A stretch of 64,000 bases of DNA, the filler included, from Stramenopiles sp. TOSAG23-6 (Eukaryota): assembly GCA_900128565.1 (NCBI GenBank). It is 21 parts of 21 records of this genome, joined end to end, with 100 filler letters (N's around TTAATTAATTAA, not from the genome) between each part and the next. Parts side by side here need not be neighbours in the genome. Positions count along the whole stretch, not along the records: positions 18,473 to 21,446 come from LT637721.1; 20 more parts are not named here. One strand, given 5' to 3'. Under the pieces are notes generated by a model. The model was not told where the DNA came from and did no database searches. It was given only the letters and a program-made list of their open reading frames with translations. A program made the position numbers and the translations under genes. Positions 19,357 to 21,368 of the stretch are shown piece by piece. Numbering within the stretch: position 1 is the first letter of the stretch; every line of letters begins with the position of its first letter.

Positions 19357-21368
19357 ATGCCAGGGGTCCATATTAGGGGAGCAAATATCGTTGTTGATAC
19401 ATTCAAGGAATTCCATGAACCTGTCGTTTACTTTCTGACTCACGCACATAGTGACCATTTAGTTGGACTTACTCAAGGATGGTCCCGTGGAATAATATAC
19501 TGCACTGCACTGACAAAGTTATTTCTTCAAGAAAATTTTGGTATCGACGATAGCCATATTATTGCTTTGGAAGTAGGTAAATCTTCGTTATTTAGTTTAC
19601 CAAAGTGTACAAGTACTGAAATGTTTGCTAGTGTAACCCCGATAGACGCTAATCACTGTCCCGGGGCAGTGATGTTCTTATTTGAGGGCTCTTATATTCC
19701 AGGGGATACGATTCTACACACTGGCGATTTTCGATACAATCCTACTATAATGAACAATATTTTATCATTGAAACAGATTCACACGTTGTACTTGGATAAC
19801 ACTTATATTTTACCAACAACAAGAGACCCATTGTACGTTTCCATCATTTCCATTTCGAATTTATTTTTTTTGTACCAAATTTTGTACCTAACGATTTTTT
19901 TTACTACAACAAATATTTTTCACAATACTTGTTTAGTACAAAACAGTCTTGCTTTTCATTTCCAACCCAAGTTGCTGCAAGAAAACAGATTTTAAACATT
20001 ATCAAGTCTCATTCGGATCAATTGTCGAAGAAATATAATTATATTTCAGATCGTCGCATCATGCATGTCTTGTACGTTATTGCCTATTTTTTTCTCTTTT
20101 TTTTTTTTTCATACGAAATTTTGTACTTAACAGAAAAAAACGATTTTTTTTTTCATACGAAAGAAGATTTCGTACCTAATAAATTTCAAATTTTTGAAAT
20201 ATTTTTTCACAATATTTTATTGGTTTACACTACATTGGTAAAGAAGAAATATTATTAGCCATTTCTAATTTCTTCGGAATTCGTGTTCGAGTTTCCAAAA
20301 AACGGTTAAATACTCTTGTACGTTTTATATGAATTTCTAATTTATTTTTTTTTTTCATACGAAATTTTGTACCTAACAAATTTTAGTTTTTTTTTGTTGA
20401 AATATTTTTTCATAATACTTTGCCTGGGGTTTGGTGGAGACAATCCAACTACCCATTTTGTGGATAAAACAATTTTAGACCCTACGGATAAACAACGTGA
20501 ATTATTGGCAGGTGTTTCTGTTGAAGTCATCCCGATATATGTTTTTATTTTTTTTTGGTAGAAAATTTCGTACCTAACGATTTCGAATTTTCAAAAATTT
20601 AATTTTAGATTTATTTTTTTTTCATACCTAATACGTATGGCTTTGTACCAATTAAATTTCAAATTTGATGTATTTTTTCACAAAACATGTACGTTTTCAT
20701 GACAAATTTCTTCAATTTTTTTTGTTTCTTTTTTAGTATTACATTTGTACTTAATAAAAAAAACGATCTTTTAAAAAATATTTTTGTAGAAAACATGCAC
20801 GAATTGAAATCAGAAGCTATAAAAAAACAAATTGTTTCCGCTGATGGGTTTTGTATTGGCATTGCTCCTACAGGTCAGCCTATAAAACATTTAAACTATA
20901 TATTACATGTACCATATTCATTACACAGTAGTCATTCTGAACTAATATCTTTTATTGCATTTATCAATCCTAAAGAAGTCAGAGCGGCTTCAATTGAGTC
21001 TCTTCAATCGAGAACTGCTTTACTATGTGCTGCAAAACCATATATAAATGTTTCTAAAAAATGTAGAAATTCAAAAAACCATAAAATGATAAATCCTCTA
21101 TGTTCAGACAAAATTAGTTCGAATCAAAATACAGAAAATGACAAAATAAACAAAATTAGTGTGAATCAAAATAATAGTAACAAAACTAACTCGAAAAAGC
21201 CTAAGCAAAAATGGTTTCGACTTTCAAATTATAAAATATCGAAGCAAAATCGTAAACGTCGAAGAGGTGCAAAGTTACGCCCAATAAATTCTGAATCTAA
21301 AACAAAATCAAATTCTCCTCTAGATATTTCTGATGACTTTTGTTCTGACCTTTGTGATGTAAATGGCT
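19357..21368 (+). CDS. SNM1/DCLRE1-family beta-CASP metallo-beta-lactamase nuclease; introns 19833-19930, 20072-20217, 20318-20420, 20537-20688 + 20689-20796
   Basis: FLTHAHSDH, DANHCPGAVMFLF, LHTGDFR, LYLDNTY, IGKEE, VPYSLHSSHSEL. Confidence 0.93.
19833..19930 (+). mobile_element. Family intron, GT..TT with TT direct repeat
   Basis: cca TT|GTACGT...CACAATACTT|g ttt; frame continues to FSFPTQ. Confidence 0.82.
20537..20796 (+). mobile_element. Two family introns back-to-back (20537-20688, 20689-20796) with no exon between
   Basis: ccg AT|ATATGT...CAAAACAT|GTACGT...GAAAACAT|g cac gives VEVIPMHEL. Confidence 0.75.

Follow-up and report, generated by a model that had tools for sequence, protein, structure and literature searches.

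A family of short, AT-rich repeats, each complete copy of which appears to form a whole intron, is scattered through the genes of a 64,000-nucleotide stretch of DNA deposited as Stramenopiles sp. TOSAG23-6 (assembly GCA_900128565.1); this stretch, at its full length, is referred to below as the window. The introns concerned are one repeat family, and 43 of its 46 complete copies end in a dinucleotide other than AG. The last two bases of these introns tend to repeat the last two bases of the upstream exon, and the match is real, within the limits of small numbers and hand-set ends. We consider it moderately probable that the family is an introner, a mobile element of intron size without autonomy, that colonised the host genes, duplicating at each insertion a 2-bp target with a preference for AT, and that the downstream copy of the duplication forms the non-AG 3' end. 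We are much more confident that the copies are introns whose borders are defined by the family itself and whose 3' ends are not AG.

Copies were collected by a profile search followed by curation by hand, since matching 5' with 3' motifs automatically gave too much noise. The profile was built from an alignment of 24 clean seed copies, and an nhmmer search of the window with a cut-off of E<0.01 returned 62 matches in 61,194 non-N bases, that is, about one per kilobase. Curation retained 46 complete copies, 42 found by the profile and four taken from the list of an earlier inspection of the same DNA (hereafter the sequence-only reading) or from a regular expression. Kept out of the counts were 55589-55629, 52788-52707, 50710-50624 and 24349-24520, whose 5' ends are unclear; 51646-51399 was counted although its frame fits solely with a 3' shift of -2 or +1.

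Complete copies have a median length of 108 nt (range 70-248 nt) and a median G+C of 0.19, share about 65% identity pairwise, and lie without exception (46/46) in the sense orientation relative to the host open reading frame (ORF). Read from 5' to 3', they consist of GTAYGTTT, a T-rich stretch, a core, an A/T run, GAAATATTTTT, CAMAATAC and two last bases. The 20-nt core TACGAAATTTTGTACCTAAC, in which a near-palindrome (GTACGAAATTTTGTAC) precedes the branch-site-like CTAAC, occurs 48 times in the window with at most three mismatches, where 0.01 occurrences are expected, and TACCTAA or a close variant is found in 39 of the 46 copies, its median distance to the 3' end being 44 nt. At the 5' junctions the first base is G in 48 of 55 cases and the second T in 52 of 55, while the two preceding bases vary; among complete copies, 38 begin with GT, within the conserved GTAYGT, six with AT and two with GA. 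The sequence-only reading had described the element as having GTAT..ATAC inverted ends. The consensus ends GTAYGTTT and CAMAATAC are indeed inverted over 4 nt (GTAT/ATAC), over 6 when the flanking AT..AT is included and over about 8 with one gap, but the repeat is short.

Two further observations concern this anatomy. Copies starting with AT (ATATGT, ATACGT or ATAAGT) are those at 20537, 56279, 60803, 9041, 12983 and 44752, and the GA start is seen at 55761 and 60664; since excision restores the ORFs around no fewer than four of the copies with an AT start, some tolerance seems to exist at the first intron base too. Some longer copies (146-248 nt), namely 20072-20217 on the plus strand and 51646-51399, 50405-50252 and 18208-18005 on the minus strand, have the core or neighbouring segments duplicated and carry no additional terminal motifs.

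The borders of the introns were examined by a frame test, in which the excised segment of each copy began with its first base and stopped two bases past ..AC, and the junction was scored as lying, or not, inside an ORF that stays open over 25 codons or more to either side. With this family-defined border, 41 of 45 junctions fall inside long ORFs; displacing the 3' end by -2, -1, +1 or +2 leaves 11, 10, 9 and 11 of 45, respectively. The test has power, since the lengths of the copies cover all three residues modulo 3 (13, 17 and 16 copies per class). ORFs of 838, 817, 751 and 483 amino acids (aa) created by excision cross four, four, five and five junctions. The four failures are 49281, which adjoins a contig end; 51646, in which the shifts that fit mean that one border is off; and 9041 and 12983 (5' ATACG, uncertain).

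Protein-family profiles confirm the excised length to within a single residue. In a gene for an AMP-binding enzyme, position 179 of the Pfam AMP-binding model (..SSGTTGNPKG) ends the exon before 24081 and position 180 (the V of VQLTH..) opens the exon after 24207, and alignments to PDB entries concur. Across 55984-56076, Peptidase_S9 runs from position 53 to 93, through a split codon and from 95 onward without a gap, position 96 being the second residue of the downstream exon. The RNA-level cut that keeps the host frames lies exactly two bases past AC, whether these two bases are AT, TT, AG or AA. Where flank and end are identical, three registers yield the same message. The register that starts at GT was retained because GT is conserved while the two bases before it vary, because a cut two bases further left at 24081 changes PKG to PKD, and because three copies (50132, 16281 and 56552) have AG exactly at the terminal position and are thereby GT-AG introns of the ordinary type. 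An AT-AC intron, of U12 or U2 type, whose register lies two bases to the left, was rejected on the same change at 24081-24207, where GT..AT keeps AMP-binding positions 179 and 180 adjacent; moreover, copies with an exon flank other than AT could not begin with AT.

The gene at 19327-21368, which encodes a metallo-beta-lactamase nuclease resembling Apollo/SNM1B, carries several of the informative copies. Its homologues are annotated as 5' exonuclease Apollo or DNA cross-link repair 1. Removal of five copies leaves a 483-aa ORF that is open across all five junctions, and the product spliced in silico aligns without a gap to homologues at three of them, those of 20072-20217, 20318-20420 and the tandem pair 20537-20796. 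Thus the sequence ..RLNTL/CLGFGG formed at the second (the slash marks the junction) aligns to ..RLATLKLGFGG in a homologue, and ..VEVIP/MHELK.. is formed at the third when both tandem copies are cut. The tandem pair is arranged head to tail and reads AT-copy-AT-copy-AT, with one AT in common, which fits a second insertion into the duplicated site of the first. A second tandem is possible at 24349-24520 (plus strand), where a contig end interrupts. In the RNA libraries no contig covers the exons of this gene, or joins them, across any intron of 18473-21446 (record LT637721.1); the joints present link repeat copies to one another and give no verdict on splicing.

The last two bases of the 46 complete copies are AT in 36, TT in six, AG in three and AA in one, and the last two bases of the preceding exons are AT in 25, TT in eight and nine other dinucleotides in the remaining 13. 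Flank and end are identical in 28 of the 46, a figure that shuffled pairings (mean 20.6) reach in 0.03% of cases (P=0.0003). Half of the copies (23/46) belong to the AT/GT...AT/ class, which the sequence-only reading had named as the common one, and five are TT..TT. That reading had also listed six TT-ending copies, five of them after exon TT (19833, 20072, 20318, 34674 and 44752) and one, 15783-15635, after CT; coordinates and flanks proved right for all six, the last being the sole TT-ending copy with a differing flank, by one base. Its exceptions, TT..AT at 2068, 18208 and 34344 and GG..AT at 2424, were found as described, and the first three are the only cases of exon TT among the 40 copies that do not end in TT. 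The resulting table (5/1/3/37) gives p=0.0002 by Fisher's test. The association persists when the trio in the Apollo-like gene is counted once (p=0.006), when the four frame-test failures are removed (p=0.0004) and when the 42 profile-found copies alone are considered (4/0/2/36, p=0.0001).

The extent of the repeat can be read from the same junctions. Counted to the left of the two borders of a copy, the stretch over which bases agree has a mean length of 1.76, against 1.45 for shuffled pairings (P=0.002), and a left direct repeat of at least 2 nt is present in 28 of 45 copies, the most frequent length being exactly two bases (20/45). A duplication that extends further, into the exon downstream (ATGTA), was rejected, since the rightward run, in which the start of the intron is compared with that of the next exon, is not specific to the copy (P=0.30). 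A subfamily of TT copies was rejected as well: these are about as similar to one another (mean identity 0.658) as to the other copies (0.656), AT copies are the closest to them, and in a tree made with FastTree the TT copies are dispersed. This scatter suggests that the terminal dinucleotide is set at each insertion and not inherited.

According to the reading we favour, each copy would bring with it the 5' splice site GTAYGT, a core with a small hairpin and the branch-site-like CTAAC, a T-rich stretch and the 3' terminus ..CAMAATAC. Insertion would duplicate a 2-bp target, mostly AT; the upstream copy of the repeat would remain as the last two bases of the exon and the downstream copy would become the last two bases of the intron, so that removal of the element with one repeat copy would give back the original message unscarred. 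Mismatches would stem from point changes that later arose in one or the other repeat copy, and a T-to-G change would account for the few canonical AG ends. The host splicing machinery would have to accept non-AG 3' ends, perhaps aided by pairing of (AU)GUAU with AUAC(AU). Much of this had been put forward by the sequence-only reading. Its 2-bp target duplication is partly supported, in that removal restores reading frames, the terminal bases copy the flank above chance, the TT copies are scattered and the tandem pair has a single AT, but 18 of the 46 copies do not match. The drift toward AG that it supposed agrees with two of the three AG-ending copies, whose flank is AT, one change away; all three mismatch their flank. 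A drift toward AT is unnecessary, as AT dominates the exon side (25/46) as well as the intron side (36/46), which looks like a target preference.

Several points weigh against a duplicating mobile element. The mismatched copies differ from their flank at one base in 13 cases and at both in five, and include all three AG-ending copies and the AA-ending one; mismatched flanks fit later substitutions in an old family and fit equally well an AT that is the element's own 3' signal. In the 23 AT..AT copies the repeat is inseparable from the family consensus, from a splicing or insertion preference and from an extended inverted repeat, since AT is its own reverse complement and lengthens the ends to ATGTAT/ATACAT. 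Three of the five TT..TT cases belong to one gene. At one of these, 19833-19930, an in-frame AG lies 6 nt further on (19936), in a region that varies among homologues, and the 3' end may be either TT or this canonical AG. Inverted ends of only 4-6 bases are short for a MITE (a miniature transposable element with inverted repeats), a family of copies about 65% identical is not obviously young, and the copy ends were set by hand from the profile alignment in a small sample (46). A palindromic target consensus of the kind left by a transposase is not seen: the downstream exon starts with G at 33 of 58 junctions (GT at 18 of 58), and position -3 of the upstream exon is C in only 15 of 55, that is, unbiased. 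A Pfam scan of 10 of the 70 ORFs of at least 130 aa in the window found no transposase, and no metagenome contig bridges an intron-free site within 18473-21446, as an empty allele would.

Some of these observations would be expected if there were no duplication at all, the terminal AT being the element's own non-AG 3' signal, the exon AT a preference for proto-splice sites AT/G, and the TT..TT copies a product of selection or chance. Indeed, the intron ends in AT in 36 of 46 copies whatever the flank, 13 of them with a flank other than AT; the frequent G at the start of the downstream exon (33/58) resembles a splice-junction preference; and ATGTAT and ATACAT are mutually inverted, so that AT may belong to the terminal repeat. 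We nevertheless think this unlikely. With 3/40 as background, finding TT after TT in five of six copies has a binomial probability of 1e-5, or 0.0016 for three of four with the trio counted once, and the TT copies are no subfamily. In addition, if the element owned both ATs, excision from GT to AT would leave two surplus bases in the message.

The asymmetry at the downstream exon looks more like a splice-junction preference than like a transposase footprint, and it leaves room for a spread of the family through RNA, the excised intron being reinserted either by reverse splicing or as a complementary DNA joined at a break through a 2-base microhomology of its 3' end with the target, the match being then a requirement of joining. 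In accordance with this, all 46 copies are in the sense orientation, the AT/G junction context is asymmetric and not palindromic, no transposase was seen in the 10 of 70 ORFs scanned, and the three TT copies of one gene could be local reinsertions. Yet such a route makes the terminal dinucleotide heritable, whereas the TT copies are ungrouped and have AT copies as nearest relatives; the sense orientation is equally expected if unspliceable insertions are selected against; and tandem copies with one common AT fit a duplication. Spread through RNA thus appears quite improbable.

The best named relatives of a long alpha-mannosidase exon in the window are from the diplonemids Sulcionema specki and the 'Hpha' transcriptome, at 54-62% identity, and its remaining close matches are all unnamed marine metagenome proteins; for this reason the host is read, with moderate confidence, as probably an uncultured marine diplonemid. 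Noncanonical introns described in marine diplonemids, in single-cell genomes of eupelagonemids, probably come from the same lineage. A non-spliceosomal, structure-guided removal, as envisaged for the nonconventional introns of Euglenozoa (for instance by a duplex-specific nuclease and a ligase), would turn the 2-base cut into a stagger and the repeats into ambiguous borders. This would suit the non-AG 3' ends (43/46) and a fixed 2-nt overhang geometry. The ends can also pair: minimum-energy folds join (A)UGUAU to AUACA(U) in many AT copies, through a helix of 4-6 bp, with at least three expected end-to-end pairs in 28 of 45 copies, a count for which the control with a reversed 3' end is uninformative, since ATACAT reversed still pairs. 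Such routes have been proposed for hemistasiid and Euglena introns in the passages of PMC12621601 that deal with them, and junction direct repeats occur in 84% of the Euglena agilis introns in the relevant part of PMC12501133. On the other hand, the conserved GTAYGT is the spliceosomal 5' site of diplonemids, the branch-site-like CTAAC and the 3' end are separated by 44 nt (median) and the terminal position is AG in three copies. The helix is short and is absent from the folds of TT copies 19833 and 20072, the two that were printed; in the alignment, the 3' end of GTACG copies has not changed in a compensating way; and TT after TT is left without explanation. We therefore regard removal of this kind as improbable.

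A bolder variant, which we put forward only tentatively and hold to be rather unlikely, is that the 3' cut is measured and not read, falling two bases past the paired GTAY/RTAC ends or a fixed number of bases away from the core, with any dinucleotide accepted. If this were true, a mobile element could become a clean intron at any target, with its own 2-bp scar as 3' end; the family would be a living intermediate between spliceosomal introns (GTAYGT, CTAAC) and the border-less nonconventional introns of Euglenozoa, and would show how the latter arise from introners.

The nature of the assembly calls for one more comparison. The window carries 20 spacers of the form N44-TTAATTAATTAA-N44 (2984-3083, 6066-6165 and so on, every 3.07 kb or so), which delimit 21 pieces sorted by falling length, from 2,983 to 2,660 bases; it is made of joined short pieces of a fragmentary assembly, and adjoining pieces are therefore not neighbours in the genome. 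The pieces are AT-rich, with a G+C of about 0.2-0.39. Thirteen of the 40 internal contig ends fall inside family copies, so that the intron family also breaks the assembly. Such a chain of contigs of about 3 kb, with copies at 13 of 40 ends, could raise the suspicion of an artefact of amplified DNA, chimeric joins or repeats collapsed into genes. This is extremely unlikely: one fixed excision rule restores ORFs at 41 of 45 junctions and gap-free protein-family profiles, and contigs from seawater DNA runs of a separate study share 0.23-0.38 of the sampled words with three of the pieces. Three seawater metatranscriptome runs also matched window sequence, in small shares only. A degenerate pattern (core, gap, 3' motif and a next base other than A) run against public metagenomes gave 11 stretches, none of which is the element by nhmmer, one being a weak match (E=0.002). 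Contigs from one seawater metagenome and three seawater RNA libraries, compared with 18473-21446, gave summed word depths in the thousands for the cores and of 0-6 for the exons, which prove neither copy number nor transcription.

The family consists of many similar copies, each a whole intron, with element borders that are intron borders, as is the case for introners. The sequence-only reading had likened it to the introners of Micromonas pusilla and Aureococcus anophagefferens, from which, in the work of Huff et al. 2016, splicing reportedly removes the element together with one repeat copy, whole or in part, and thereby restores the message. The likeness (high copy number, no autonomy, intron size, sense orientation in genes, flanking direct repeat and inverted ends) makes the comparison apt as to mechanism; it does not establish membership of a DNA-transposon superfamily. 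As the passages of PMC7789003 on them have it, Aureococcus introners always carry direct repeats and terminal inverted repeats, and the introners of both algae use canonical GT-AG sites, whereas the present family has a 2-bp repeat and 43 of 46 non-AG ends. The same passages describe, for Amoebophrya, introners with direct repeats of 3-5 nt over the exon/intron borders, inverted repeats of 8-20 nt able to pair the ends, noncanonical ends and no internal transposase (PMC7789003). In these respects (repeated introns, noncanonical ends, direct repeats at the borders, pairable inverted ends, no transposase inside) our family is similar, but it is a single dominant one with GTAYGT, a 2-nt repeat and inverted ends of 4-6 nt, while the Amoebophrya introners are there said to have very diverse ends and no conserved 5' GT.

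Tc1/mariner elements duplicate a 2-bp A/T dinucleotide (TA) that flanks short inverted ends, and the family here has a putative 2-bp A/T duplication and short inverted ends too. Membership of Tc1/mariner was rejected: the repeat is AT (23 copies) or TT (five) and never TA..TA, and no matching terminal repeat was found, nor a transposase among the 10 of 70 ORFs scanned. A transposon origin is also said to have been proposed for the noncanonical introns of Fritillaria borealis. In that species noncanonical introns have taken the place of most others, an adapted U2-type spliceosome being presumed to excise them (cited in a passage of PMC12621601). It is an animal, with other terminal dinucleotides.

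Euglenid introns, which belong to the same phylum, likewise have direct repeats at their junctions (here a left repeat of at least 2 nt in 28 of 45 copies) and inverted ends. In the passages of PMC3935182 and PMC12501133 concerned with them, these repeats blur the borders, the inverted ends prompted the hypothesis of a MITE origin, the first base is preferably a purine and the last a pyrimidine, and intermediate introns retain a 5' GT with a non-consensus 3' end. The nonconventional class differs from our family, in which GTAYGT is conserved and the pairing positions given there, CA at +4,+5 and TG at -7,-6, are absent; nor do the same passages describe it as one high-copy sequence family (PMC3935182; PMC12501133). 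A euglenid-type nonconventional intron, without conserved GT/AG or a U1-type 5' site, was rejected for the family as a whole, the 5' end being GT within GTAYGT in 38 of 46 copies, though 43 of 46 lack AG at the 3' end. For diplonemids, the relevant passages report many putative noncanonical introns with predicted pairing of the ends in marine single-cell genomes (PMC12621601; PMC6221363), a proposed MITE origin for hemistasiid introns and, for Diplonemidae, (G)/GTATG as 5' splice site (PMC12621601). In hemistasiid introns the inverted ends are rich in G/C and, in the account of PMC12621601, no 5' GT is conserved; the present family is AT-rich and has a 5' GT. Publications thus already cover noncanonical introns of marine diplonemids, repeats at the junctions and an origin from MITEs. 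The distinctive points here are that one AT-rich family is involved, that it is well conserved and carries a 5' site of diplonemid type, that its repeat has 2 bases and that its 3' end is mostly AT. The literature searched on introners and diplonemids holds no account of this family; a prior description is possible, the original 2016 single-cell study and supplements lying outside the search.

The family offers a concrete and testable route from transposon insertion to noncanonical intron, in a lineage that is ecologically dominant and poorly known and whose genes are full of odd introns. It also provides a natural set of 3'-end variants (AT, TT, AG and AA) on one sequence background, suited to the study of 3' site choice. 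On the practical side, most gene models of such genomes will come out broken from gene finders that demand AG, and assemblies are fragmented by the repeats.

The coordinates of the main copies and of the Apollo-like gene are collected in the table.

Table. Family copies and host gene discussed in the text. Slashes mark exon/intron borders, and the two last intron bases follow the plus sign.
Feature	Position	Strand	Borders	Remarks
Apollo/SNM1B-like metallo-beta-lactamase nuclease gene	19327..21368	+		at least five family copies; Pfam Lactamase_B_2 on first exon
Copy in Apollo-like gene	19833..19930	+	TT/GTACGT...CACAATAC+TT/	nhmmer E=2e-11; frame open at offsets 2 and 8 after AC
Copy in Apollo-like gene, duplicated core	20072..20217	+	TT/GTACGT...CACAATAT+TT/	no usable AG; ..RIMHV/FIGLHYIGKEE gap-free against closest homologues
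Copy in Apollo-like gene	20318..20420	+	TT/GTACGT...CATAATAC+TT/	nhmmer E=4e-13; ..KRLNTL/CLGFGG gap-free against P0121 ..QRLATLKLGFGG
Core TACGAAATTTTGTACCTAAC, example	20358..20377	+		near-palindrome GTACGAAATTTTGTAC, then branch-site-like CTAAC
Tandem copy 1, ATATGT start (first G to A)	20537..20688	+	AT/AT...CACAAAAC+AT/	
Tandem copy 2, starts right after the AT closing copy 1	20689..20796	+	AT/GTACGT...AGAAAAC+AT/	nhmmer E=1e-6, full model
5' part of a further copy	21369..21446	+	CT/GTACGTTTTC..	ends with contig; nhmmer model 1-78, E=3e-10
Copy with telomere-like CCCTAAA repeats within	34532..34674	-	TT/GTACGT...CACAAAAC+TT/	817-aa ORF after excision; nhmmer weak, E=0.065
Copy with 5' AT instead of GT	44634..44752	-	TT/ATAAGT...CACAATAC+TT/	nhmmer E=0.0016; spanned by 515-aa ORF
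Copy	15635..15783	-	CT/GTATGT...CACATCAC+TT/	included in 751-aa ORF over five introns; no nhmmer match
Copy in AMP-binding enzyme gene	24081..24207	+	GC/GTACGT...CACAATTT+AT/	fixes register via AMP-binding 179/180
Copy in prolyl-oligopeptidase-family gene	55984..56076	+	TA/GTATGT...CACAATAC+AT/	Peptidase_S9 continuous
Copy of usual anatomy, canonical AG end	56552..56636	+	TG/GTACGT...ACAATAC+AG/	
Copy, one change from AT	50042..50132	-	AT/GTATGT...CAAAATAT+AG/	306-aa ORF over five introns of its contig
Copy	16166..16281	-	AT/GTACAT...GACAATAT+AG/	

Among the copies outside the Apollo-like gene, that at 44634-44752 lies in a gene for a cysteine-rich repeat protein, whose frame, examined by hand, is kept only with an intron end 2 nt after AC. 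The telomere-like units of intron 34674-34532, of the CCCTAAA(C/A) type, number several and lie at 34575-34630 on the minus strand; a similar telomere-like sequence, TAACCCTAACCCTAA, is found at 24354-24372 (plus strand), inside the intron that starts at 24349. In the Peptidase_S9 gene, a remnant of about 41 nt at 55589-55629 (plus strand) has the family 3' end alone (CAAAATACAT), with no recognisable 5' GT, and by eye seems to break the frame; it may be a 5'-truncated copy still taken out as a mini-intron.

The alpha-mannosidase gene contains, at 10176-10272 (minus strand), an intron without a profile match, which starts with GTATGTTAAC (GTATGT) and, by eye, seemingly ends with the canonical AAATGTAG (TGTAG). 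Since it looks like a GT-AG intron, ordinary introns of this type appear to be present in the same genome; it holds a stretch, TTTTCACAC, that resembles the 3' region of the family.

No tRNA gene or Rfam family was detected in the 64,000-nt window. An ORF at 4923-5450 (minus strand) on piece 3084-6065 matches Pfam RVT_3 (E=2e-13) and RNase H, with no family ends alongside; the G+C of this piece, 0.39, is higher than that of the others, and it has scattered single Ns. The ORF may code for an RNase H of the cell, be what is left of a retroelement, or belong to another organism. Lastly, 29952-30713 and 41323-42972, both on the plus strand and on two different pieces, encode clearly paralogous proteins (..IEAL.FKCFQA...MVELVTQSD.CILQ.SRLNKLK..), the second of which, by eye, runs on into Sel1-like repeats.

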